Of a stretch of DNA of 64,000 bases, positions 1,498-62,802 are shown piece by piece (the stretch's first letter is position 1; each line of letters starts with the position of its first letter). The notes beneath the pieces were generated by a model, which was not told where the DNA came from, did no database searches, and worked only from the letters and a program-made list of their open reading frames with translations. Source of the stretch: Escherichia phage ECD7; sequence record NC_041936.1; one strand, 5' to 3'. The position numbers and the translations under genes are program-made.

Positions 1498-2109
1498 TTA
1501 GATTGCGTTGATATTAGGCTTATGTTCCCCAAAATGACGCAGTACAAACTGTGCTTCTCGATGCCATGTCTGAATGTCTTTTTCTTTCACCGGAATAGTG
1601 ATTTTCAGACCATTGTCTTCATAGGTCGGATCGTCGAAAATCTGCACCATTTTCGGCATAGAGTTTTGCACAAATGCCGTAAAGCCATAAGCGCGACCAT
1701 TGTAGTAGTTTACGATTGTAAAGGTGTCGGTGTAACTATAAGCAGACTTCGCACCCAAACCAAAAGATCCGATATAATCATTAGTTTGGTCTTTTGTTGA
1801 TTCAAAGTAAACCGTAAACAATTGTTCTAATTCTTTCTTAGACGGAATACCAGTACCATAATCACGCACAGAAAAATACGGTTCGATTGCAGTTGGTAAA
1901 TGAATATCAAACGGACGATCTAAGGTTCCTGCTTCTTTGTGAGTGTCGGTAGCATTGCACGAATACTCACGGACGCAAGCACGTTCACAATATTGATAAG
2001 TGTTCTTAGAAAGCACCATAAAAGCCTTGCTACTTGCTTTCAGTGAAAAATCAACCGCACCGCTCAGGTCACTGCCAAATACTTCTTCATTATCGATATG
2101 CATTTTCAT
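1498..2109 (-). CDS. rIIA: rIIA N-terminal GHKL-ATPase-like portion, ended by in-frame TAA at 1498-1500
   Basis: 203 aa with GSFGLGAKSAYSYTDTF region resembling RIIA N-terminus; ATG at 2107-2109. Confidence 0.8.
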   Translation of the reverse strand: MKMHIDNEEVFGSDLSGAVDFSLKASSKAFMVLSKNTYQYCERACVREYSCNATDTHKEAGTLDRPFDIHLPTAIEPYFSVRDYGTGIPSKKELEQLFTVYFESTKDQTNDYIGSFGLGAKSAYSYTDTFTIVNYYNGRAYGFTAFVQNSMPKMVQIFDDPTYEDNGLKITIPVKEKDIQTWHREAQFVLRHFGEHKPNINAI

Positions 2110-5972: not shown

Positions 5973-6278
5973 TTAAATATCCTCCGCGATATGACGGAAC
6001 AACTCCAGATCGTTTTTATCCAGAATGAAACCGCTACAATCAATAATCCCGTTACCGTAATTATCGGTTAACAGTCGGTCCGTTGCCATGTATGCGCGTA
6101 CTTTGTTGTTAAAATTCATTACGTGTTGTGCATAGTCACAATGAATCTTTTGACGGTTCCACGCGACAATTGATTGTAGATGTATGACATTAGCCATATC
6201 ATTAATAACAACCATATCAAAAACCTCGCTTAGTGAAATGTTCTGGCATTTTATTGATACATACAGCTTGGTAGTCAC
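5973..6278 (-). CDS. hypothetical protein (dexA.1 position)
   Basis: 101-aa ORF; its 5' region is part of a local direct repeat. Confidence 0.4.
   Translation of the reverse strand: MTTKLYVSIKCQNISLSEVFDMVVINDMANVIHLQSIVAWNRQKIHCDYAQHVMNFNNKVRAYMATDRLLTDNYGNGIIDCSGFILDKNDLELFRHIAEDI
6190..6269. repeat. direct repeat copy 1 (gene end/start junction module)
   Basis: ccatatcaaaaacctcgcttagtgaaatgttctggcattttattgatacatacagctt, repeated imperfectly at 6387-6447. Confidence 0.7.
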
Positions 6279-6386
6279 GAGATTTTTTTTGACGAATTAA
6301 GAGCTACAGCCAAAAAATCCTGTAACTGTTTGTTTGTCATTTTTGGCTTACACCGCGTATCTAAACTCTTCGTTCTTCTGGCTTCA

Positions 6387-6447
6387 TTAGCCATATCAAA
6401 ACCCTCGCTTAGTGAAATATTCGATCATTTTATTGATACATTCAGCT
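6387..6447. repeat. direct repeat copy 2
   Basis: ccatatcaaaaccctcgcttagtgaaatattcgatcattttattgatacattcagctt. Confidence 0.7.
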
Positions 6448-9668: not shown

Positions 9669-10187
9669 TTAGTAGCCGCGTTCTTGACGGGCGAAGTTTT
9701 CAGCATTTTTCAGATAGTACAGAATAAAGAGTTCTTGAGCGTCAATACCCAGCGGGATCATCTTGGACAGAATGAAGTGGATCGCGTCCACAAATTCAAA
9801 TTTCACTTCAAGCTGATCTTCTGGTGACAGTTCAGAGAATTTACGCGCTCGCGCTTCCCCGTGGTTCTTTTTCCACATTTTCCAGATTGCGCTTGCATCT
9901 TTACCATTGGACATTCCACCCAGCGATGTGTAAAGCTCTCGTGTTTCGTCTGCGATAGCGTCATCCATCCGTTGCATCCAATCCAGCATTTCACCGCAAG
10001 TCTCTAGCTTAGTTGGGTTTGGGACCCAATCAAATTTTTCGGATAATGCAACCTGCAAACCAGTTTGCATTTCGAGCATCACCTGAAACGGATCTTTACC
10101 TTCTGCAATCGCGTGATGATATGCGGCGATAGCCGCGTTAATATCTTTTTCGTTAACCAGACCAGCACAAGAATTAAATTCTGACAT
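9669..10187 (-). CDS. 56: dCTP/dUTP pyrophosphatase gp56 (MazG-like)
   Basis: ATG at 10185-10187 with GAGGTG SD (track start is GTG at 10193); position between mod and 61. Confidence 0.65.
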   Translation of the reverse strand: MSEFNSCAGLVNEKDINAAIAAYHHAIAEGKDPFQVMLEMQTGLQVALSEKFDWVPNPTKLETCGEMLDWMQRMDDAIADETRELYTSLGGMSNGKDASAIWKMWKKNHGEARARKFSELSPEDQLEVKFEFVDAIHFILSKMIPLGIDAQELFILYYLKNAENFARQERGY

Positions 10188-10201
10188 ATTCACCTCATTA
10201 A

Positions 10202-11230: not shown

Positions 11231-11237
11231 AAGATCC

Positions 11238-11801
11238 TCACTGTATATTTTTACTTCTCTGCTTTCCTATCCAGATCCGTCTAACTGTTTCCGCATTAAC
11301 ATCATATATTTTTGCGATCTTTGCCGCAGATCCGGTTCCTTTTAGAGTTTTGATTTCTTCAATCTGATCTTTGGTTAATTTAGCCCAATGGTGTGCATCA
11401 CCATAACACGAACTCAGACCGTGTGTCAATGCATGAATCTGATTTTCTGATTGTGTAACCCATTCAAGATTATATAGGTCATGGTTTCTTTTGTTTCCAT
11501 CGATATGATTAACAAACGGCAAATTGTTTACGTTTGGTATAAACGCTTCTGCTTTTGCTCTGTGTATGTATATCGATAGAGATTTAACCCTAGACCCTGA
11601 ACTAGTTTTATTACCGTAAGGATCTCTGATTCTTGCTACGGCGTATCCACCGCTTCTTCCGGCTACAGATTCTCTATAAATCTTTCCTGTTTTCTTGTTT
11701 CTAATGCGTCCATATGAGCTAACCTCGTAGCCTGGCATTTCGACGCCCATATAAACAAGGTCTTTCCATTCTTCTGGATGTTCATCACAATACCGTTTCA
11801 T
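11238..11801 (-). CDS. free-standing HNH homing endonuclease (AP2/NUMOD-like N-terminus, C-terminal HTH)
   Basis: HIDGNKRNHDLYNLEWVTQSEN HNH motif; inserted between 61 and 56. Confidence 0.8.
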   Translation of the reverse strand: MKRYCDEHPEEWKDLVYMGVEMPGYEVSSYGRIRNKKTGKIYRESVAGRSGGYAVARIRDPYGNKTSSGSRVKSLSIYIHRAKAEAFIPNVNNLPFVNHIDGNKRNHDLYNLEWVTQSENQIHALTHGLSSCYGDAHHWAKLTKDQIEEIKTLKGTGSAAKIAKIYDVNAETVRRIWIGKQRSKNIQ

Positions 11802-11816
11802 GATGTTATTAACCTC

Positions 11817-15216: not shown

Positions 15217-16287
15217 TTATGCTAACATATCTTCGATTTCTTTGTCAACTGCTTCGTCGCTGATCACTTGCCCCAGCTTATAATGATCGTTGATTGCTTC
15301 GTTAAACTTATCGTTTGTCAGAAGTGGTTTCCAGAACTCAATGCTATTGGTTTCTTTAGCACGGAACTTGCGTTCTTCGGTTTCCATCTCTCCGGTCTCA
15401 GTATTCAGGATTGAACGAGAATACCAGCCGTTTGACGGTTTCACTACCCAACCTAACTCTACAGCCAACTCCAGCAAACCGGAATAAGGATCGATGCCAC
15501 CGCTAAATGTTACGCTAATCGGGAACTTAGATTTTTCTTTAACGGTTCGTGATTTTTCCGCATTCAGGATAAAATCATAACCAGTAATTTCGGTTCCTTC
15601 TTTCTGCTGACGACGACCAATAATGAAAACTTCATTGGCTGAATACATCGCGCCCGTACCGCCGGACATAACGGTCTTACTAAACATTTCTTGCGTTTCG
15701 TAAGTGTGGTTAATAGCGATGCACGGGATATCATTCATAGTCAGATACGGTGTAACCATACGGAACAAGCCTTTAAGTGCTTTAGCTCGCGTCATATCCT
15801 GTGCGGATTTCTCATTAATCGCGTCTTCAACTTCTTTTTTACTTGCTAAGTTACCGATTGAGTCAATAAAGATGATCACTTTATCTTCACGGGTAATTTG
15901 CTCAAGCTGGTTCATGATTTCAAATTTAAGTTCTTCGATGTTCTTGATTGGAACATGCACCACGCGATCAGGATCTACACCCATAGATTCAAGATAAGCG
16001 GGTGTAATACCGAACTCAGAATCAAAGAACAAACACGCCGCATCAGGATTCTGTTTCATGTATGCACTAACACAAGTTAATCCCATGTTTGATTTAAAGT
16101 GCTTAGACGGACCAGCAAAGAAAATCAGACCAGATTGAAAGCCCTTTTTAAGATCACCTGAAAACGCAATATTCAGCATCGGGATCTTAGTGCGAGTATT
16201 TGTTTTTTCGTTAAAGAAGCTGGATTTAGACAGTACCGCAGTAGTTTTCAGGGTAGAGTTCTTTTTCAGTTTTTCCAGTACAGACAT
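15217..16287 (-). CDS. uvsX: UvsX recombinase (RecA-like)
   Basis: 356 aa; TKIPMLNIAFSG, GPSKHFKSN, CIAINHTYETQEMFSKTVM resemble T4 UvsX. Confidence 0.95.
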   Translation of the reverse strand: MSVLEKLKKNSTLKTTAVLSKSSFFNEKTNTRTKIPMLNIAFSGDLKKGFQSGLIFFAGPSKHFKSNMGLTCVSAYMKQNPDAACLFFDSEFGITPAYLESMGVDPDRVVHVPIKNIEELKFEIMNQLEQITREDKVIIFIDSIGNLASKKEVEDAINEKSAQDMTRAKALKGLFRMVTPYLTMNDIPCIAINHTYETQEMFSKTVMSGGTGAMYSANEVFIIGRRQQKEGTEITGYDFILNAEKSRTVKEKSKFPISVTFSGGIDPYSGLLELAVELGWVVKPSNGWYSRSILNTETGEMETEERKFRAKETNSIEFWKPLLTNDKFNEAINDHYKLGQVISDEAVDKEIEDMLA

Positions 16288-16298
16288 TATTAATACCT

Positions 16299-16526
16299 CT
16301 ATTCAGTTAATCCGTAATACTTTAATTGCTTCATTGTTATTCGATCTTTGTAGTGCTCTTGAATTAACTTTTTCATCGCATCAACATCGATCGTCACAAA
16401 TACTTCGTTGCTGTGATTTCCGTGAACTTTCTTGAAATGCTCTATGCCTTCCTCACGTTCGCGTTTAATCTTTTCAATGTCTCTCATAGTATATTTCTCA
16501 CGTTGGCGGGTATCGTCACCCAACAC
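16299..16526 (-). CDS. hypothetical protein
   Basis: 75-aa ORF occupying the slot where T4 has beta-gt/42/imm. Confidence 0.4.
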   Translation of the reverse strand: MLGDDTRQREKYTMRDIEKIKREREEGIEHFKKVHGNHSNEVFVTIDVDAMKKLIQEHYKDRITMKQLKYYGLTE

Positions 16527-16548
16527 CCGCCATTATACACACTCGATC

Positions 16549-18025
16549 TTAAATGTCAAACAGGTCCGTAAGCGATGCCACCTTTTCATATTGCAGCTTT
16601 GCAGCCGTGGTAATGTTCTCCAGTGGTTTGACGAAAGTCTTATTAAACAACAAAGGCCAGTCTAACCACTTCAACACTTCTGATTCAATTTCTGGCGGAA
16701 TACGAGTACCAGACAACCAACCAAAACAGATTTCTCCAAACGGATTTCGATCTTTAAGCGGTACAATCATAACCTTCTCGCCTTCACGAATCGGATCTAG
16801 TCCGAATTTTCGAGCATTACGATTATAACACAATACACTCTTAACCGCATACGGACAACCCTTAATCGGATACCCGTTTGAATCGCTGTATTTCTGTAGG
16901 TTGTTTGCAGATGATACCGCAGCAACCTCAAGATAATCAAGTTTTCTAAACTCTTGCTCAAAAATACCGTAGTATTCCTGTAGCGATTCTTCCCCTTCCT
17001 GCAACATACGGCGAATACATTCTTTCAGTGATTTCTGACATGCTTTAGGGGTGGAGCTACGTTGCGTTTCCAAGCCCATGATTTTTAGCTTAGGTTCAGC
17101 AAAGCGCGTTCCTTCCATATCCCAAACATTAAGAGCATAACGCTTTTTACCAGTCCAGAATCCACCGATACCCGCAGATTTCAACGGAGGACCAGCAATT
17201 GCCTCACGGTCCATAAACATCAAGTGCTCATAGTTATTCATGTACTCGCATAACTCGCGATATCCCTTGTCGATAATAGGTTCCATTCGATGTTTACCGA
17301 AATTATCAAGGAAGTCAACAAGTTTTTCGGTATCGTCGAAACGGTCTTCCCCGCCAACCTTATCAACAACATTGTTAACCAGCACATAAACGGAGTCAGT
17401 ATCACAATAACGAACATATGCAAAATCAGTTGTTCCGCAAAGCTCGTTTAAGTATTCGTTAATCTTACGCTCAATCCACTGAATTGCAAGCTGACCAAAC
17501 AGTGTGATCGCACTAGCGTTACGGAGATCATAAAAACGGAATTTAGGATTCCCCAACGCACCATAAAGGGAGTTGATCAAAACTTTACGAGAAAGCTGGT
17601 TTGTATTGCACAAGATCGACTCGTCTTTACATTCTTCCAGCAATTTCTCTAAGGCATCTTTACTTAATTCAGAAAGCATCGATTTAAACGCTTCGTCAAA
17701 GTCGTGACGCACTTCAACGCTATAGCTAATGGTTCCCCCATAAACATGATTTTCATCGTGTAGAATCGCTTTACATAGTTCAGCATTGCGATCACATGCC
17801 AGCATCATATTTTTGTACTGCTTACGCTGATCAAATACCTTTTTAATCTCAATAGGTACGATACCATGAATATCTTTTCGATACATCCACCCGTTAGGCG
17901 AGCAAGAATACTCATCACTCGGACGTGGTGCAGTTTTATTGATATATTCGTGCATCGGTGCAGCATCAAAAGATCCAGCGATTGTTTCAGGCGAAATATT
18001 AACCTGACGGATGATTGATGGATAC
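16549..18025 (-). CDS. 43: DNA polymerase gp43, exon 2 (motif A YPS onward; palm/thumb)
   Basis: Frame open from 18025 (YPSIIRQVNISPET...); LINSLYGALGN, YCDTDS, KKRY motifs; stop at 16549-16551. Confidence 0.9.
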
Positions 18026-18165
18026 CATTATGTTCAGCGCGGTTCGCTACTCCCGCGCCCGTTCTCTTGCGAACTGCTACATGTCACCATGTAGATCAGA
18101 CTATATCACATTCTCATAGAGAATCCTGCCATTTCGAATCGCTTGATTCTACTCTACTCGGTTCG

Positions 18166-18990
18166 TTACCCTTTCGATAGTCGTTGAACAACTGCATCTT
18201 TAAGCTCATTTTGATCAAACGGTGTTCTCTTACAGTACCCGCTATAATTCTTGGCAAAAGGTTTCTTCTTACCAAAGATCTCTTTTCCTGAATTATGTGC
18301 TTCAACAAGAAAATTCACCATTTCATCAAATGTGAAACTTGTAAATTTAGCATAAGTTTCATTACGTTTTGACATTATTTTACTCATAACTTCCGGTCGT
18401 TTAGACGCTGAATTTTCGCGCTTCTCGCCAGCATTAAATGATACTAACTCACCGGAAACATATCTAGGATCATCACAACTAACTCTAAACCGATTTCCTT
18501 CCTTATCCTTAACGATAACAGTATTCTTTAGCTTTTCTGCCATAGAATCAAGACCTTTTCGTATAGTGTCCTCATCAGCCCCGAAATATTTCTTTCCGCT
18601 CATATCGGTTCTGGCTTTTCCGGTCTTGTTTTCGGATATTTTCAGTCTAACTTCCTCTCGCTTGGCTGGGTTATTGTCTCCAGCGAATGCATCTTTGGTT
18701 AACGCCTTCACTTTATCGTCATAAGATCCTCTAGAGATGAAAGCATATGCTCTCTTGCATTCACCGTTATTGAATATTAAGCACAATAACCGATGCGCCT
18801 CGACGTGGTCTTCAAACTTAAGCCTAACAAGATTCCATTTATCTAACCGATATTCAGGGAACATTGACTTCGGGCATATATGATGCACCTCGGAATATTC
18901 TTCACCCTGATACGGATTAGACACCAGTTTAATGTAGTCGTTTAATGCTTCCTCGTTATGTATTTCGTACTTTCTTAAAATGTCTTTCAT
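18166..18990 (-). CDS. intron-encoded HNH homing endonuclease
   Basis: HNH motif EVHHICPKSMFPEYRLDKWNLVRL...HVEAH; ATG at 18988-18990 preceded by GGAGG. Confidence 0.8.
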   Translation of the reverse strand: MKDILRKYEIHNEEALNDYIKLVSNPYQGEEYSEVHHICPKSMFPEYRLDKWNLVRLKFEDHVEAHRLLCLIFNNGECKRAYAFISRGSYDDKVKALTKDAFAGDNNPAKREEVRLKISENKTGKARTDMSGKKYFGADEDTIRKGLDSMAEKLKNTVIVKDKEGNRFRVSCDDPRYVSGELVSFNAGEKRENSASKRPEVMSKIMSKRNETYAKFTSFTFDEMVNFLVEAHNSGKEIFGKKKPFAKNYSGYCKRTPFDQNELKDAVVQRLSKG

Positions 18991-19035
18991 CTCGCGCCTC
19001 CAATGTATATCAATATTTATATACATTATAAGACA
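18991..19035 (-). promoter_or_regulatory. T4-type late promoter (TATAAATA) and RBS for the intron endonuclease
   Basis: Minus strand TATAAATA (plus 19024-19031) about 33 nt upstream of the HEG ATG. Confidence 0.5.
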
Positions 19036-19139
19036 CGTTAGCTCAAAATGCAACTGCTGCTGATTGTCTCCTTAGAGATTTCCCAGCAATTAAGCAGGTT
19101 ATTCGATCACTGTCACCAGTGAAAGCCCCATATCAGTTT

Positions 19140-20341
19140 AGGGAAGTAAGGTCAAAGCTCATCATCCAACGATAAGCATTAGGTACTGGCTCTTTTACGA
19201 ATGCGCCAGGATAAGTCTGCTTAGGCTGTATCTTGTTCTCTGGTACTACTTTACCCTCAGCTTTCAGAGATCCGAAGATAATAGCATCCCATACTTTCAT
19301 CGGGTTATAAACATGGTTAAATTTAATCTTTGCATAGAAACATAGACTATACACCAGATCGATAAATCCACGCTTTTTATCAATCGCCAGCACACGATCA
19401 ACGTCGCCGATGTTATAATCGATGTAAAGTTGATGATTGTCATCACGCAATTTCTTTAACGGACCATCATAATCAACCTTACCGATTCCTGTCTCATATT
19501 CAGCAACATAATCTAACGCATATGTTGGTTGAGTCGTAAAGCTAAATTTCTTGTACAGGTCAATATAATCAAGGCTTTCGATCCCCATGATCGTAAATGC
19601 TTCACGCTCGTTGCCAAAATCATCCTGTGAGATTCTGGATTTAATCTTACCGCACGGGCTTAGACGGTTAGCGGTTCTACTTCCGAACTTATTACTGATA
19701 CGTTTAATGATATATGGAATATCGAATGTTTCTGTGTTCCAGCCAGTGAAACCAACGGGTCGGTTTTCCTCAAAGAATCGGATGTATTCTAACAGCAATT
19801 CATCTTCTGTGTCATAGACGTTATAAACAACGCGCTCTACAATATCAGGTCGAAGAATAGACTTGCTTGCTTCCCAGATTTCACCGTTTTTTCCTTTCAA
19901 ATCAAATACAAAGAAACGATCATGTACGGAATCATAATGCGTAATTGCATCTATAGGATATTTCGCTTCTTCTGGTTTAGGAAATTCTGGGGCAGTGACC
20001 TCAATATCAACCCATGCTACACGGATTTTATTTCGGTCATATCGAATCTCTCCTTTATACGTATCGGACAGATAGGAGATGATAAAATCATCCATCCCTA
20101 GTGCCTCTTGCCCCATCTCCCCCATCTTTTTACGCCATTTGTTGGCCTCGTTCATAGATGGGAATTTTTTAGCAATGCAAGGCTTGCCGTAGATATCTTT
20201 ATAATTCGTAACCATACCAGGCGCGGCATGATGAAATAAAGTTGGCGTATATTCAACGTAACGCTCTTGTTCTTGTCCAGCATCATCAATATAACGCTCG
20301 TAGATCTTATCACCCACTCGCTCACATGACAGAAAATACAT
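19140..20341 (-). CDS. 43: DNA polymerase gp43, exon 1 (N-terminal and 3'-5' exonuclease domains to motif A)
   Basis: ATG 20339-20341 with AAGGAG SD; ERYIDDAGQ, FDIPYI, ends FDLTSL at splice site. Confidence 0.9.
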
Positions 20342-27189: not shown

Positions 27190-27222
27190 GAGAGTATAAC
27201 GGGGATTTCTCCCCGCGTCAAC
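27190..27222 (-). promoter_or_regulatory. sigma70-type early promoter with CGGGGA/TCCCCG stem-loop in spacer
   Basis: Minus: TTGACG-17nt-TATACT. Confidence 0.5.
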
Positions 27223-28247
27223 TAACTTTTTGCGCTATTTACTTCGGCTAAAAGTTCATCAGAAATACGCTTGACCGCCGCAAGTTCTTCCGGTTCTAGG
27301 TTTTGTTCTTCCAGATATTCATAGACCATCTGAATAGTGCTTTTAACTTCAATAACACCTGTTTCCTGTGATGCGCTACTCTCCAGCTTATGGACCACTT
27401 TTAGCTTGTGTACAACGGCCTCTAACGCGCTTTCTAACTTAGTTAACCCATTATCAGCGACCGTTGCGATAAGACGCACACTAAGCCCTTTAAAGCGTTC
27501 TACATCGATTTTATCATCTGACGGGTAAGTGATACGCACATGATAAGTTTTGTCATTCTGGATAAACTCTTTTTTGTGTGTATCGGTATCGAATACCCAA
27601 AACCCACGCGGATCGTTTTCGTCACCCGCCGTTAGTGTGTATGGTGTACCGATATACGTTACATTACCGCCATCGCTGATAGTATGAAAGTGACCAGAAA
27701 ACACTTCACGGTATTTCTTGAGGAAGTCCGCGCTATAACCTTCGGATTTTAGCCCTTTATAGAAATAGTAACCAGACAGTTCCCAATGGCCTACACAATA
27801 TTCGCTGAATGAGTTTTGAATAAACTCTAAAATCTCTGATTTATTGTCATCACAAAACCACGGGAACAGATCAAATGATACACCATCAAAGGTGACTGTT
27901 TCCGGTTTATCAATAACCTTAATGCAATCATACTGGCTTAACACTTCACGCGGTGCGTTAGGCTGGATCTTGTTTCGTTTAAACATATCATGATTCCCGA
28001 CCGTGATATAACAAGTAATTCCAGCCTCTTCCAGTAATGGGATGACCTTAGTACGGTTAAATTTCATGGTTTCATGGGTAATTGCTTTTCGGCAATCAAA
28101 CCAATCCCCTGTTTGAATCCATGTCTTAATATTATGCTCTTTGGAGTATTCAACCGCTTTCTTGATGGTATCAAGAATATACTCATGCACCCACGGATCA
28201 TCGCCACCGATACCAGTATGCAGATCACCTAAAAGCAAAATTTTCAT
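27222..28247 (-). CDS. 47: recombination nuclease subunit gp47 (SbcD/Mre11-like phosphoesterase)
   Basis: MKILLLGDLH, GNHDM metallophosphatase motifs; 341 aa. Confidence 0.93.
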   Translation of the reverse strand: MKILLLGDLHTGIGGDDPWVHEYILDTIKKAVEYSKEHNIKTWIQTGDWFDCRKAITHETMKFNRTKVIPLLEEAGITCYITVGNHDMFKRNKIQPNAPREVLSQYDCIKVIDKPETVTFDGVSFDLFPWFCDDNKSEILEFIQNSFSEYCVGHWELSGYYFYKGLKSEGYSADFLKKYREVFSGHFHTISDGGNVTYIGTPYTLTAGDENDPRGFWVFDTDTHKKEFIQNDKTYHVRITYPSDDKIDVERFKGLSVRLIATVADNGLTKLESALEAVVHKLKVVHKLESSASQETGVIEVKSTIQMVYEYLEEQNLEPEELAAVKRISDELLAEVNSAKS

Positions 28248-28338: not shown

Positions 28339-28626
28339 TTACAGCATACTTAATACCGTTTGCCGTGTACTAATCCACATAGCAGAAAGCAGTTCTGGCG
28401 TGTGTGGCTGTTTGTAGATATCACGTAACTTTCCGATAGCGTAGATATACGCATCACGATTATCATCGATGATAGCTTGTTCAGCCCACCGCTTAAGGCG
28501 TGCAATCTCTCGCGAGTTCTTACGCAAGATCTTTTCCGCTTTCTTAGCGGCTTTAGCCTCTAGTTCTGCTTGTACTTTGTCTACTTCATTCACTGCAATC
28601 TGGTCATGCTGTTCATTGCAAGTCAT
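28339..28626 (-). CDS. hypothetical protein
   Basis: 95-aa ORF in the slot where T4 has alpha-gt. Confidence 0.4.
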   Translation of the reverse strand: MTCNEQHDQIAVNEVDKVQAELEAKAAKKAEKILRKNSREIARLKRWAEQAIIDDNRDAYIYAIGKLRDIYKQPHTPELLSAMWISTRQTVLSML

Positions 28627-28627
28627 A

Positions 28628-28861
28628 TTATTTTACCTCTGGGATATAATCAATTATTAAAGAAAATTCATCTTCTGATACATTATAGCTATGTGAGATT
28701 GTACCCGTAAAGACCTCAAGATCCGGTGATTTGATATTGCACGGATCGATAATCACCGGAACGCCGCAATCTCTCAAAAATAATTTGGCGAAATACGGCA
28801 CAAGGTCAGTTTCAAACTCTGCTTCTTCCAGCAAACGGGAAATGTTAATTTTCAATCTCAT
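28628..28861 (-). CDS. hypothetical protein
   Basis: 77-aa ORF. Confidence 0.4.
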
Positions 28862-29378
28862 AAAATTGGTCCAGGCTAGGCAATTCCTCGGTCAATACAT
28901 CTTCAACCTTTGGCGCTTTCGGTTTATTGACCGATTCCTCGTAGTTGTTGATTTTATCGTAAATGTCCTGTATGAATGCCTCATCAGCAATCTGGCACAT
29001 ATCAGCGTCGCGTTCGTCATATACATGATGCACAAAATATTTGTATTTTGCGGCTGTCGCTGTTCTCTCTTTTTTAATGCGCTGTACAAAAGCATTAAAG
29101 CACGCTTGCGTGATGTAAGCATGAGGATTTTTATACTTTGTCTCGTCAAAATTAATCAAACCCTTGACCGCCGCTTCGATTCCGTCGTCGATCATTTCTT
29201 CGCGCCATGTTTGACTATAACCAGAAAAGTTAAAACGACGTGATAGATTTTTGGAGATTTGCATAATTGCTAGGCCGATTTGATCGCTCATTGGAACTTG
29301 CCGACCTTCTGCTGCAATTTGTTGTTTCCAACGGCAAATTTCTTCGTAAAGCTCTTTATTGTTTACATAATCAGACAC
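28845..29378 (-). CDS. 55: late-transcription sigma factor gp55
   Basis: [36 protein letters not shown] essentially identical to T4 gp55; GTG start with GAGGGT SD. Confidence 0.92.
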
Positions 29379-41266: not shown

Positions 41267-42079
41267 TCAATCTACGTTAGTTACATAAACTTCTTGTGTA
41301 TCAGAAGACTTACCACCTGAACGATCTAGGCAATAGGTCTTATTCAACAGGACGCAGTTTAAATCATTCCGCTTGATAAAGTCAAGGAGATGATCATTTA
41401 CCTTTCCCTTATGATGTGTGACATTACTGATACCAAACCGAAAACCACGCTCCATAATAGATTCTACCCACTGATAGAATTTAATCTCTTCCTCGTCACT
41501 CCAGAACTTATTATATTCCGCAGAAGTGATAAGGTACGGCGGGTCCAAATAAACGAAATCACCTGGCAAGATCTCGATCTCGTCATAACGACCAGAAGTA
41601 AAACTGATTCGACCGTCTTTGTTTTCTTCCTTAAAATTCAGGACACGCTCTACCGCGTTTTCGTTAAAAGTCCGGCGACCAAAATTAGCATTAAATTCGC
41701 CCTTCCGGTTATGGCGGTTAATGTTGCTAAAACTGTGCTGAATCAGAACAAACAGAGATAGCGGATCTGGATTCTCATTATACTTCTTACGGAATGCCAT
41801 GTAAGCATCTTTATCATCACGAGACAAATCATTTTCGGCAATAATCCGCTTGATCGTAGAAACCGGATCAGGACACTCGTCAATCGCTTTGTACGCTTCA
41901 ATTAAGCGGTGATCATAGTCATTAGCCAGCACATCCCCTTCGACGTACAGAGACACGCTCAAGCCGCCACAAAAGGCATCAACAAAGCGGTTATAGTGCT
42001 TAGGGAAATACTTACTAACACCTGGCAATAGCTTTTCCTTATTGCCAGTATAGGGAATTAAACCTAATGCTTTCTTCAT
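41267..42079 (-). CDS. dam: DNA adenine methyltransferase Dam
   Basis: FCGGLSV (SAM-binding) and DPPY catalytic motif; 270 aa. Confidence 0.85.
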   Translation of the reverse strand: MKKALGLIPYTGNKEKLLPGVSKYFPKHYNRFVDAFCGGLSVSLYVEGDVLANDYDHRLIEAYKAIDECPDPVSTIKRIIAENDLSRDDKDAYMAFRKKYNENPDPLSLFVLIQHSFSNINRHNRKGEFNANFGRRTFNENAVERVLNFKEENKDGRISFTSGRYDEIEILPGDFVYLDPPYLITSAEYNKFWSDEEEIKFYQWVESIMERGFRFGISNVTHHKGKVNDHLLDFIKRNDLNCVLLNKTYCLDRSGGKSSDTQEVYVTNVD

Positions 42080-51240: not shown

Positions 51241-51407
51241 TTACATTTAGGGCAATGCGGTTCTTTAATATAATACCCGTCTGTCTTTGGAACACTAACA
51301 GGAGCGGTTTTTATATTGTATTCAGTGAAACAACGAAAACAAGTTACGTTTTCTACAGACTGACGTTTCACCCAATCACCGGAATATAGATCATTTTTAT
51401 TTGTCAT
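51213..51407 (-). CDS. zinc-ribbon-like small protein
   Basis: CFRCF...CPKCKC; probable internal ATG at 51405-51407. Confidence 0.4.
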   Translation of the reverse strand: MTNKNDLYSGDWVKRQSVENVTCFRCFTEYNIKTAPVSVPKTDGYYIKEPHCPKCKCRLYWSHL

Positions 51408-51852
51408 ATTCAACCACCACAATGTTAATGTCTGGAGTAGCAATATTAATGATCTCTTCTACACATTCCCACTCAAGGCCACCGATACCGCAACCGATTT
51501 TAGGAATATAGAAAGGCTGTATAGCACCCTCAAAAACATCATTGAGAGACTCAAATCCTTTCAGGATAGCACCATATTCAGCATTTGGACCCGGTCGGAA
51601 TTTGGTATAGAGATTCACCCCGCACCAGTTATAACCATTAACTTGATGCGTCCAGACACTAAACCCACCCAGCTTTTCGACCTTACCGCGAGAAGTTTGC
51701 TTGTCAATCTCTAACGCTTGCGGGAACTCTTTCGCGATCTTCGCAGCAATACCAGCGCCCATAGTATGAAAACAATTACAACCATGAATTAAATGACCGT
51801 TTCCTTGTTTAAACAGGGCGATGAGATCGCCCTTTACAGTATCAATAATCAT
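51397..51852 (-). CDS. macro-domain protein (ADP-ribose binding/processing)
   Basis: GDLIAL...LIHGCNCFHTMGAGIAAKIAKEFP and later IGCGIGGL resemble the macro-domain ligand-binding loops. Confidence 0.65.
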   Translation of the reverse strand: MIIDTVKGDLIALFKQGNGHLIHGCNCFHTMGAGIAAKIAKEFPQALEIDKQTSRGKVEKLGGFSVWTHQVNGYNWCGVNLYTKFRPGPNAEYGAILKGFESLNDVFEGAIQPFYIPKIGCGIGGLEWECVEEIINIATPDINIVVVEYDK

Positions 51853-54974: not shown

Positions 54975-55391
54975 TTAGAGAGATTCGGTAAAGGTACGCG
55001 CGATAACGTCACGCTGCTGGTCTGGAGTCAGACTATTGAAGCGCACTGCGTAACCAGAAACGCGAATTGTAAGCTGCGGGTACTTCTCAGGATGTTCAAC
55101 AGCGTCCAGCAACATTTCTCGTAACAATACGTTAACATTCAAATGCTGACCACCTTCGACAACCGGAGCACCATTATCTACAATGACAGGACGGAAGCTA
55201 GTTGTGTGCAGTGCCAGCGAATCGACGTCTTCTGCGGTGATCACATGGTCTTCTGCGAAAGTTTTACTAACAATTACTTTAGCGCCGATCAGTGCTTTCG
55301 GTTCGGATACCAGAATCATAGGCGCGAAGTGTCCACCAATAATAGTACCTTTATGCTCACCTTTCATGATTTGAATTGCTTTAAATTCCAT
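54975..55391 (-). CDS. autonomous glycyl radical cofactor (GrcA/YfiD-like)
   Basis: C-terminal [12 protein letters not shown]...[34 protein letters not shown] nearly identical to enterobacterial GrcA. Confidence 0.85.
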
Positions 55392-62068: not shown

Positions 62069-62533
62069 TTACAGTTTGGTCGTCCACTCCAGGTCTAGAT
62101 CTTCGACATACTCATGAGATCGGACAATCTCTAAATCGAACTCTAGGTCAGTGCCAAATTTACGCGCACCAACATCATAAGAAAGCGTGATATGCGGTAC
62201 ATATTCAGGATAATCCCACGTCGCACCTAAAGCAGTGCCGATATCGTGTCTGAATTGCATGTAGTCGCTTTCAAATGCCAACACAAGCGCATTAGTACCG
62301 GATTGAGTTTCAAACACTTTCAGATGACACAGAGAGCCTAAAAACTTTTCACCCTCTTCCGGGATAAACGGAACATAGACACGAGAATATAAGATAGTGC
62401 TATGCAGTTTATCACGAGGAACAGCATTAGGCAGATCGTAGAACTCCTGCAATTTTTCAATGCGGTCTAGTGTATCCTCAGTGAATTTAACCGCAGCATA
62501 TGTACCTTTAACGGATTCTCGAAACGGGGTCAT
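62069..62533 (-). CDS. 2H phosphoesterase-family protein, Acb1 (gene 57B)-like candidate
   Basis: Two H-x-T-x motifs (KLHSTILY, VPHITLSY); sits next to 57A and gene 1 as T4 57B does; ATG 62531-62533. Confidence 0.55.
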   Translation of the reverse strand: MTPFRESVKGTYAAVKFTEDTLDRIEKLQEFYDLPNAVPRDKLHSTILYSRVYVPFIPEEGEKFLGSLCHLKVFETQSGTNALVLAFESDYMQFRHDIGTALGATWDYPEYVPHITLSYDVGARKFGTDLEFDLEIVRSHEYVEDLDLEWTTKL

Positions 62534-62535
62534 AA

Positions 62536-62802
62536 TCAAGCCTCCGTGATCAGTTCTACTTCCTCTTTATCGTCTTCCGCTGCTTCGTCTTTAGGGAGAA
62601 GTGCTTTCACTTCTTCGACAATCGCATCAAGGGAAACAGTGCCGTTTTCGTCTGGCTGAATACCCAGAATGCGTACCAGTTCCATCAATACACGCTCACG
62701 ATCTTTCAGTTGGCCTTCTAAGAATGCGGCCTTTTCTTGAGTGTCAAACAGACGTACTTTCAGGACATTAATCATTTGTTCATGCTGATTGGACATATTC
62801 AC
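62536..62802 (-). CDS. 57A: tail fiber assembly chaperone gp57A-like
   Basis: 88 aa coiled-coil, LKVRLFDTQEKAAFLEGQL resembles T4 gp57A; synteny. Confidence 0.6.
   Translation of the reverse strand: MNMSNQHEQMINVLKVRLFDTQEKAAFLEGQLKDRERVLMELVRILGIQPDENGTVSLDAIVEEVKALLPKDEAAEDDKEEVELITEA

Follow-up and report, generated by a model that had tools for sequence, protein, structure and literature searches.

Compact uvsX–43 and 47–55 junctions without gene 42 or glucosyltransferase genes in DNA assigned to an RB49-like T4 relative that very probably packages ordinary cytosine

In the 64-kb stretch of DNA analysed here (the window), uvsX and gene 43 were separated by a gap of 261 bp, which lay between the right-hand edge of uvsX (16,287 bp) and the stop codon of gene 43 (16,549 bp). 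uvsX forms the left border of this gap, at which T4 has segA, b-gt, 42, imm and imm.1; the order in the T4 record is uvsX-segA-b-gt-42-imm-imm.1-43. The sole gene found between uvsX and 43 was a small ORF (Table 1). When read from an upstream GTG at 16,526 bp this ORF would encode 75 aa (16,299 bp–16,526 bp); we have placed its start at the ATG at 16,487 bp, giving 62 aa, because the PHROG alignment covered residues 14–75 and because relatives annotate a protein of 62 aa. A preliminary description of this DNA stated that uvsX and 43 are separated solely by a 75-aa ORF. It was correct that no other ORF is present, but the real start gives 62 aa and the remaining 61 bp of the gap were occupied by a promoter and stem-loop cassette. 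The small ORF is annotated as hypothetical in Cognac and RB49. Its identity was at least 95% across 57 phage records, and all 57 Krischvirus records contained it; homologues with 45–50% identity, over part of the length, were found in 13 phages of approximately 48 kb. The possibility that it was a diverged imm or imm.1 was rejected, as it showed no similarity to T4 imm or imm.1.

Table 1. Coordinates in the window of the features at and around the two junctions, with the evidence for each assignment.
Feature	Position	Strand	Evidence
Gene 56 homologue (dCTPase/dUTPase family)	9669..10193	-	49% identical to T4 gp56, E 2e-60; PHROG 173; Pfam dUTPase_2
uvsX recombinase	15217..16287	-	Pfam T4_UVSX_C 4.7e-35 and RecA; 64% identical to T4 UvsX
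Small ORF, 62 aa from ATG at 16487	16299..16487	-	PHROG 12120 at 7.4e-42; homologue of RB49ORF025c
PeSL-type cassette	16504..16559	-	Perfect sigma-70 promoter and G/C stem-loop, upstream of the small ORF
Gene 43 exon 2 (DNA polymerase)	16549..18025	-	Pfam DNA_pol_B; 100% identical to RB49 gp43 residues 425-892
Putative group I intron, 1114 nt, in gene 43 motif A	18026..19139	-	Splice-site logic; Rfam Intron_gpI 32.8 bits
HNH homing-endonuclease ORF, full length, inside the intron	18166-19053	-	PHROG 12434 at 1.1e-131
Gene 43 exon 1	19140..20341	-	Pfam DNA_pol_B_exo1; 99.8% identical to RB49 gp43 residues 1-401
Gene 47, Mre11/SbcD-like nuclease subunit	27222..28247	-	Pfam Metallophos; 56% identical to T4 gp47
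a-gt.4 homologue (DUF2654)	28339..28626	-	Pfam 1.3e-22; BLASTP against T4 a-gt.4: 43%, E 8e-20
a-gt.5 homologue (DUF5491)	28628..28861	-	BLASTP against T4 a-gt.5: 32%, E 4e-11; PHROG 1169 2.8e-29
Gene 55, late sigma factor	28845..29378	-	PHROG 234 at 4.2e-63; 61% identical to T4 gp55
dam, GATC N6-adenine DNA methyltransferase	41267..42079	-	Pfam MethyltransfD12 4.6e-31; 46% identical to T4 Dam, E 1e-70

The cassette consisted of a TTGACA-N16-TATAAT promoter on the minus strand (16,559 bp–16,532 bp), which matched the consensus at 12 of 12 positions, and a 12 bp G/C stem-loop directly after it (16,532 bp–16,504 bp; -22.2 kcal/mol, z -5.2), which formed a GGCGGGUGUUGG...CCAACGCCC-like helix. The cassette overlapped the gene 43 stop codon. 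Eight perfect sigma-70 consensus promoters were present in the window compared to 0.09 expected, all of them on the minus strand. This arrangement fits the description of the promoter-early stem-loops (PeSLs) of RB49 and phi1, in which a G(n)-loop-C(n) stem-loop comes straight after a near-perfect sigma-70 promoter (PMC4122927); the promoter, the adjoining stem-loop and a small accessory ORF alongside were all found here. The cassette would be predicted to drive the 62-aa ORF that occupies the position of b-gt, 42 and imm in T4.

Upstream of the junction, the polymerase gene was interrupted. The annotated ‘43A’ ORF ran 3 codons into the interrupting sequence and ended at 19,133 bp with ...DLTSLN*, and the annotated ‘43B’ ORF comprised 16,549 bp–17,955 bp; the 23 codons upstream of its ATG (YPSIIRQ...) matched RB49. 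In the records of relatives, two ‘DNA polymerase’ coding sequences likewise flank an HNH endonuclease. A two-subunit split polymerase, like that of the Aeromonas phages 44RR and 25, was rejected in favour of an intron because it would leave 23 conserved codons untranslated, part of motif A among them, and because the splice-site logic fits. Exon 1 ended in ...CCCU, with a U before the 5′ splice site, and the intron ended in ...AUAAUG, with a G at its 3′-end. Within intron nucleotides 6–14, GAUAUGGGG, GGGG can pair with the CCCU of exon 1 and GAUAU with GUAUC of exon 2. Splicing in silico yielded an uninterrupted gp43 of 892 aa that contained no stops and in which the DLTSLYPS motif was restored. 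The match to RF00028 lay in the 3′ part of the insert with a score below the gathering score of 50 (E 2.8e-6); its R and S elements were clear, and the 5′ half of the alignment, which fell inside the endonuclease ORF, is probably wrong. A scan of the whole window against Rfam at the gathering threshold returned nothing. In JSE, Petrov et al. 2010 have noted a putative intron in gene 43 whose endonuclease is truncated (PMC2993671).

Judged by its sequence, the window comprises the first 64 kb of a Krischvirus resembling RB49, a T4 relative of the ‘pseudo-T-even’ coliphage type. Nucleotide identity was 97–99% over nearly the whole window to Cognac, MIZ4, RB49, Phi1 and approximately 55 other Krischvirus records. 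A 6-kb query around uvsX-43 matched 71 phage records, the best of which was Cognac (98.8% over 100% of the query), with further top matches to MIZ4/MIZ5, G5211 and kvi; RB49, Phi1 and GEC-3S showed 98.3–98.4% identity over 81% of this query. A 24-kb query from the end of the window showed 96–97% identity over 99% to RB49, Phi1 and Cognac. All of these matching phages belong to the genus Krischvirus, Straboviridae. The window begins at the rIIA stop codon, as do the records of RB49 and Cognac, and nearly all genes were encoded on the minus strand in the order rIIA, 39, dexA, dda, srd, modB, 56, 61, 41, 40, uvsX, 43, regA, 62, 44, 45, rpbA, 46, 47, 55, nrdH, nrdG, nrdD, 49, nrdC, dam, 38, rI, tk, vs, regB, 57A/B and 1, continuing to gene 3. 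The GC content was approximately 40% across the whole window, and many ORFs had no recognisable domain (dozens had no assignable function). ARAGORN found no tRNA genes in the 64-kb window; the lack of tRNAs is a trait of the genus (PMC7552041, PMC6563267). Neither T4 MotA nor T4 AsiA had a tblastn match at E<=0.1 in the window, in RB49 or in Cognac; the lack of motA and asiA goes with the two-class transcription programme of the genus. Nucleotide identity, core gene order with compact junctions and the absence of tRNA genes, motA and asiA in the window all agreed with Krischvirus. As the data for this isolate comprise 64 kb, statements on the other 100 kb or so of the genome are drawn from relatives that are 97–99% identical. 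Separately, codon 204 of rIIA (1498 bp–1500 bp), which encodes Glu in Cognac and RB49, was changed from GAA to a TAA ochre codon; either an rII mutation in the isolate or an error in sequencing could account for this.

Genes 47 and 55 border the second gap, where T4 additionally has 47.1, a-gt, mobB, a-gt.2 and a-gt.3 (T4 record: 47-47.1-a-gt-mobB-a-gt.2-a-gt.3-a-gt.4-a-gt.5-55). The two small ORFs (28,339 bp–28,861 bp) that had been described as parting 47 and 55 were identified as the a-gt.4 and a-gt.5 homologues. The T4 layout on which the preliminary description relied for both gaps agreed with the T4 record, and the ORFs and homologies at both junctions, together with positive T4 protein controls, confirmed that gene 42, beta-gt and alpha-gt are missing at their syntenic positions. 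Its statement that a dCTPase-like gp56 and a Dam methylase are retained was also borne out, given the identity of both to the T4 proteins (Table 1). The gene 56 homologue adjoins the primase gene, and its product matched PHROG 173 (NTP pyrophosphohydrolase) at 5.2e-37 with its acidic motifs aligned to those of T4 gp56. The dam gene lies near nrdC and 49 in the window, whereas that of T4 adjoins gene 56. Gene 1 (gp1 dNMP kinase) is annotated in RB49 and Cognac and corresponded to 62,830 bp–63,486 bp of the window. Gene 56 is present in nearly all T4 relatives (PMC2993671); since this is true of both gp56 and gp1, neither is diagnostic for 5-hydroxymethylcytosine (hmC). Growth of T4 with dC-DNA requires a mutation in gene 56 together with mutations in 42, denB and alc (PMC12115623), and so the retention of an intact-looking gp56 is unexplained by sequence alone. 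The dUTPase function of gp56 has been called the essential one by Petrov et al. 2010 (PMC2993671), and the homologue here is likeliest to be a dUTPase-biased or less active enzyme.

The preliminary description also called for a search for gene 42 and glucosyltransferases beyond the junctions, and this was negative in the window, in RB49 and in nearly all of Cognac. The tblastn searches covered the window, RB49 in full and Cognac without 39.8–60 kb (a part covered by the window), with T4 segments as controls; the direct search for gp42 in relatives thus comprised two genomes, RB49 and Cognac. When the window was searched in six frames by tblastn with T4 gp42, b-gt and a-gt (E<=100), the best E value was 0.17. 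This was a short match of gp42 to 55,656 bp–55,829 bp, inside a Vs.8 homologue (PHROG 1488, no Pfam domain). Equally short were the best matches of b-gt (E 0.22, inside gene 55) and a-gt (E 0.20, inside an ORF at 32,095 bp–32,919 bp with goF-like PHROGs); all three were rejected as remnants and attributed to chance. There was no tblastn match at E<=0.1 for b-gt, a-gt, imm, imm.1, alc, denB or ndd in the window, RB49 or Cognac without 39.8–60 kb, and arn gave an insignificant match only (E 0.07) against the window, RB49 and Cognac. In the same run the positive controls cd, gp56, dam, uvsX, gp55 and gp47 were recovered at 1e-50 to 1e-150, and T4 itself at 100%. No thymidylate-synthase-fold or glycosyltransferase domain was detected by Pfam in 50 window ORFs of 75–489 aa. 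The annotation of RB49 by its authors lists no gp42, a-gt or b-gt, and alc is missing in RB49 at the syntenic pseudo-position pseT.3-rnlA.

Searching the Krischvirus genomes with gp42 revealed one weak match (E 0.014, 23% identity), which was td, located outside the window and the only thymidylate-synthase-fold protein of the relatives. RB49 td matched the Pfam thymidylate synthase family at 1e-84, contained an insertion of approximately 140 aa and had its catalytic Cys aligned. In the thymidylate synthase fold pyrimidine specificity is set by one position, which is Asn in dUMP enzymes and Asp in the dCMP hydroxymethylase gp42. In an alignment of td with gp42 and E. coli ThyA, the RB49 motif GLPFNVASY carried Asn where T4 gp42 has Asp (RND). 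A disguised hydroxymethylase was therefore rejected on the basis of the Asn at the specificity position and the full thymidylate synthase match. The alc, denB and arn functions act against cytosine-containing DNA (C-DNA) or protect hmC DNA, and make sense only in a phage with hmC DNA. On the sequence comparisons above, the T-even hmC network (gene 42, the alpha- and beta-glucosyltransferases, alc, denB and arn) appears to be wholly absent.

Genomes related to T4 are mosaic, and dam has moved here relative to T4; gene 42 and the glucosyltransferase genes could likewise have moved outside the 64-kb window, leaving the DNA hmC-modified. We give this almost no credence. Homologues of gp42, a-gt and b-gt were lacking in RB49 and in nearly all of Cognac, which is 98.8% identical across the uvsX-43 region, while the controls were positive; none is listed in the author annotation of RB49; alc and denB are missing too; and the avoidance of restriction sites described below speaks against modification of the DNA over a long period.

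Restriction-site counts were compared with Markov expectations (a trinucleotide Markov model for the palindrome counts), using 46 kb of T4 containing the matching gene blocks as a control. Among the six-base palindromes expected at least 5 times, 17 of 56 were absent from the 64-kb window, compared to 18 of 2011 non-palindromic hexamers in the window and 0 of 40 palindromes in the T4 control. There were no sites for HindIII (15–30 expected under two Markov models), EcoRI (14–25), BamHI (11–14), BspEI (12–26) or AgeI (13–18). PstI, KpnI, NcoI, PvuII and ScaI likewise had no site in the window; 121 CCGG sites (HpaII/MspI) and 11 NheI sites were present. Depletion extended to non-palindromic sites recognised by enterobacterial systems, with no Eco57I site CTGAAG (36 expected) and only 2 EcoO109I sites (34 expected) in the window. 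Across the whole RB49 genome (164 kb), 22 of 64 palindromic hexamers were absent, and EcoKI sites numbered 0 against 18 +/- 3 expected. The overall ratio of observed to expected palindromes (O/E) was 0.59–0.68 in the window, compared to 0.93–0.95 in T4, which showed no avoidance; for the C/G-containing six-base palindromes it was 0.59 in the window and 0.93 in T4. Avoidance was also seen for CCWGG (0.44 in the window, 1.15 in T4), of which 28 sites remained, and for GGCC (0.48 and 1.13). GATC was not avoided in the window (1.03, compared to 0.36 in T4), which fits with protection of this site by the phage Dam.

Only where DNA has been exposed to type II enzymes would site avoidance this extreme be expected. 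If the cytosines were unmodified over evolutionary time, the DNA would have been exposed to classical restriction enzymes and avoidance of their sites would follow. Among the papers searched, none described palindromes or restriction sites as being avoided in RB49 or Krischvirus, though such reports may exist. Petrov et al. 2010 asked how ‘seemingly unmodified’ relatives of T4 escape restriction, and purged sites offer an answer at the level of sequence.

Unmodified cytosine would not mean unmarked DNA. It is probable, as judged from the genes and sites present, that Dam marks GATC, that a second methyltransferase encoded elsewhere in the genome may add further marks and that the few CCWGG sites, 28 of them in the window, are open to methylation by the host Dcm. 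The intact Dam homologue and the GATC frequency noted above are consistent with this, as is RB49ORF143w, a SAM methyltransferase of 279 aa that weakly matched Eco57I and N6_Mtase; the Eco57I site itself, being purged, is probably not protected by methylation. Nothing was found against such methylation, which complements the main explanation and does not compete with it.

The main explanation, which we hold with high confidence, is that the Krischvirus lineage replicates and packages ordinary-cytosine DNA and that the window is its early and DNA-metabolism region without the T-even hmC network. The designation of this DNA as that of an unmodified-cytosine T4-like phage is thus supported by the genus assignment, the searches for hmC genes, the site avoidance and the experiments on the C-DNA of relatives. 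The absence of hmC genes and the presence of C-DNA in RB49-type phages are already known (PMC2993671, PMC6563267). RB49 was reported by Yaung et al. 2014 to be without the hydroxymethylase and beta-glucosyltransferase, and digests showed its DNA to be without hmC and glucosylated hmC (ghmC), as HpaII and NheI cut only RB49 (PMC4041780). HPLC/MS of DNA from TB34, a Krischvirus, detected canonical nucleosides only (PMC13390438). RB49-type phages are not among the carriers of gene 42, alc and denB given by Petrov et al. 2010, who stated that such genomes ‘probably lack major modifications’ (PMC2993671). Korf et al. 2019 described Krischvirus with ‘cytosine and no 5-hydroxymethylcytosine’ (PMC6563267), and Nikulin et al. 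2025 described the genus as without HmC-transferase and endonuclease IV genes and RB49 as transducing plasmids (PMC12115623).

One published result disagrees with ordinary cytosine in this lineage. SAP, a Krischvirus 99.96% identical to TB34, was reported in the 2026 Durham collection paper to contain approximately one third 5-hmdC and two thirds alpha-gentiobiosyl-mdC by HPLC/MS; no hydroxymethylase or glucosyltransferase genes were found in it, and its authors call the modification unexplained (PMC13390438). Krischviruses might therefore make hydroxymethylated and glycosylated cytosine, as reported for SAP, by an unrecognised pathway that is non-homologous to gp42 and the glucosyltransferases, and in that case the missing T4 genes would not predict DNA chemistry. 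The modification of SAP and its sensitivity to BrxU without candidate genes (PMC13390438), as well as the dozens of window ORFs without assignable function, are compatible with such a pathway. However, the SAP profile was identical to that of seven Tequatrovirus phages of the same collection (PMC13390438), and purified His6-BrxU cut SAP DNA least well. In the SNP table of its authors the differences between SAP and TB34 were approximately 45 single-base indels and C>T or G>A changes, and the indels would frameshift the DNA polymerase, UvsX, the sliding clamp, gp47, the topoisomerase and RNR beta. They resemble assembly error, so that the SAP and TB34 genomes are in effect the same, though TB34 is unmodified. 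As to whether the SNPs are basecalling artefacts at Dcm sites, two of the three sites inside the window were in a CCNGG context and one was not, a count of three sites only. RB49 (PMC4041780) and TB34 (PMC13390438) were unmodified by experiment, and in ghmC DNA there would be no selection to remove type II and type I sites throughout the lineage; the site avoidance is thus an added argument against a hidden cytosine-modification pathway. We consider such a pathway very improbable, and equally so that unrelated enzymes, whether among the unassigned ORFs or borrowed from a co-resident element, give fully hydroxymethylated and gentiobiosylated cytosine. In our own reading, the SAP result most likely reflects a mixed or swapped stock.

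With ordinary cytosine as the preferred reading, dCTP from ribonucleotide reductase and host kinases would be used directly by gp43, and the nucleotide pools would be supplied by Cd, Td, Frd, NrdAB, NrdDG, Tk and gp1. Rather than excluding dCTP, the gp56 homologue would chiefly serve as a dUTPase and feed dCMP and dUMP into Cd, Td and Frd. Defence against restriction would consist of the purging of recognition sites and Dam methylation of GATC, not of cytosine hypermodification, and the absence of alc and denB would be explained by the fact that both would target the DNA of the phage itself. Enzymes that still have sites in the DNA of the window should be usable for cutting and cloning it. This DNA should go unrecognised by type IV (modification-dependent) systems, and CRISPR and classical restriction-modification systems do see it; the transduction of plasmids by such phages matters for phage therapy. 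For the window itself the analysis mainly settles identity, that of an ordinary RB49-type phage in which the missing hmC genes are a textbook trait of the genus.

Comparison with known systems placed the window closest to RB49, Phi1, JSE, Cognac, MIZ4 and TB34, which share its gene order and the compact uvsX-ORF-43 and 47-a-gt.4-a-gt.5-55 junctions. Common features of the group are the presence of gp56, dam, cd, td and denA and the absence of 42, a-gt, b-gt, alc, denB, motA, asiA and tRNA genes. The window differed from them only in mobile-element content and point differences. Its gene 43 contains the intron, in which the HNH ORF is full length; RB49, Phi1 and TB34 are without this intron, and JSE is reported to have a truncated version. 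The window also has an extra HNH/NUMOD4 ORF (11,238 bp–11,801 bp) and is without the HNH-AP2 ORF040c that RB49 has between 47 and a-gt.4. The rIIA ochre codon also sets it apart from these relatives.

The core genes for replication and recombination are arranged alike in the window and in T4 and other Tevenvirinae with (glycosylated) hmC, at 46–64% protein identity, and gp56, Dam, Cd, gp1, a-gt.4 and a-gt.5 are common to T4 and Krischvirus. T4 additionally has segA, b-gt, 42, imm and imm.1 at the first junction, 47.1, a-gt, mobB, a-gt.2 and a-gt.3 at the second, and alc, denB and arn elsewhere, none of which is present here. The RB43/RB16-type phages (Pseudotevenvirus) are T4-related coliphages that are also reported to be without HmC-transferase and endonuclease IV genes and to transduce plasmids (PMC12115623, PMC8056088); their genus is another one and their genome is larger, and the likeness is drawn from published descriptions only. 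The T4 dC mutants (42-, 56-, denB-, alc-) have the same functional end state, in which a T4-type replisome makes and packages C-DNA. T4 also needs gene 56 to be inactivated, whereas the phage of the window keeps an apparently intact gp56 homologue. In having lost 42, denB and alc naturally, this phage parallels the mutations required in T4 (PMC12115623), and RB49, like T4dC, carries out generalised transduction (PMC12115623).

Restriction-site avoidance in the window and in the RB49 genome was extreme. Against a trinucleotide Markov expectation, 17 of the 56 six-base palindromes that were expected at least five times did not occur in the window. The entire RB49 genome lacked 22 of the 64 palindromic hexamers. 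HindIII, BamHI, PstI, KpnI, NcoI, PvuII, ScaI, SphI, AgeI, BspEI and EcoRI had no site in the window, from which Eco57I and EcoO109I sites were also purged. RB49 retained two EcoRI sites where approximately 67 were expected, and no EcoKI sites where 18 were expected. T4, analysed over 46 kb of matching regions, showed none of this avoidance. A prior account of it in RB49 or Krischvirus was not found in the literature searched; earlier reports may exist.

Among the baseplate genes of RB49, RB49ORF143w encodes a SAM-dependent methyltransferase with weak matches to the Eco57I-type and N6 DNA methylase families; it is a candidate second DNA methyltransferase alongside Dam. The td gene of RB49 and Cognac carries an in-frame insertion of approximately 140 amino acids in the middle of the thymidylate synthase fold, and the Pfam match of the RB49 protein is broken at profile position ~110.

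SAP, a Krischvirus reported to contain modified cytosine, was compared with TB34, which has canonical bases only and is 99.96% identical to it. The differences between the two are mostly 1-bp indels, by which essential genes would be frameshifted, and the SNPs are exclusively C>T or G>A, many of them Pro>Pro or Pro>Leu (PMC13390438 Table S5). Because of these frameshifting indels and the restricted SNP spectrum, the differences suggest errors of assembly or basecalling, not real biological change. Three of the SNP sites lie within the window, and two of these are in a CCNGG context.

Gene 43 was interrupted by a 1114-nt element that splits polymerase motif A at DLTSL|YPS and contains a full-length HNH homing endonuclease ORF. 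A U precedes the 5′ splice site, the last nucleotide is G, and P1/P10 pairing and the R and S core elements are present; by these hallmarks the element is a putative group I intron. The Rfam group I intron model (RF00028) matched it at 32.8 bits (E 2.8e-6), below the gathering score of 50, and the 5′ half of that alignment, inside the endonuclease ORF, is probably wrong. Splicing in silico restored an intact gp43 of 892 aa. Relatives' GenBank records annotate two separate 'DNA polymerase' CDS. The element is absent from RB49, Phi1, TB34 and SAP but present in some other near-identical Krischvirus genomes, and JSE has a putative gene 43 intron with a truncated endonuclease (Petrov et al. 2010, PMC2993671).

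Features of the window and of related genomes (L004 and L005, RB49 loci; L010, Cognac locus)
Feature	Coordinates	Strand	Remarks
HNH_3/NUMOD4/HTH homing-endonuclease-like ORF, 187 aa	ORF 11238-11801, region 11232-11806	-	domain matches
Gene 43 exons	19140-20341 and 16549-18025	-	flank 1114-nt insert
Putative group I intron in gene 43, 1114 nt	18026-19139	-	splice-site and core hallmarks
HNH homing endonuclease ORF, full length	18166-19053	-	inside gene 43 insert
Perfect promoter with stem-loop, uvsX-gene 43 gap	16504-16559	-	
Seven further perfect promoters	232, 2190, 3174, 20374, 35800, 43672, 46653	-	
Tk.4 homologue	51397-51852	-	Macro domain protein
Vs.6 homologue	54975-55391	-	glycine-radical domain
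gp57B homologue	62069-62539	-	Pfam Acb1 (anti-CBASS), 1.5e-51
RB49 td (thymidylate synthase), 410 aa	L005:36870-38102	-	
Cognac td	L010:21300-22532		same gene as RB49 td
RB49ORF143w, SAM-dependent methyltransferase, 279 aa	L004:24465-25304	+	outside window

The main difference among these Krischvirus genomes is their homing endonuclease content. Cognac shares the HNH_3/NUMOD4/HTH ORF of the window, whereas RB49 has two small ORFs (RB49ORF017c and 018c) in its place; RB49 also encodes an HNH-AP2 protein, ORF040c, between 47 and a-gt.4 that the window lacks. Approximately 120 bp (~6270-6390), between the dexA-side small ORFs and dda, aligned to neither Cognac nor RB49 and explains most of the ~176-bp coordinate offset relative to Cognac on the downstream side. 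At rIIA codon 204 (1498-1500, minus strand), where Cognac and RB49 encode Glu, the window has an in-frame ochre (GAA>TAA), so that the 702-aa protein is split across two ORFs, 1498-2109 and 1-1434; either the phage is a true rII mutant, with the rapid-lysis type of plaque, or the codon is an error of sequencing. The glycine-radical domain of the Vs.6 homologue resembles GrcA, a 'spare part' for anaerobic enzymes.

The window contained eight perfect TTGACA-N16-18-TATAAT promoters where 0.09 would be expected, and all eight lie on the minus strand. Immediately after the promoter between uvsX and gene 43 comes a strong G/C stem-loop, an arrangement that fits the description of the PeSL cassettes of RB49 and phi1, which are said to drive modular gene shuffling in those phages (PMC4122927).
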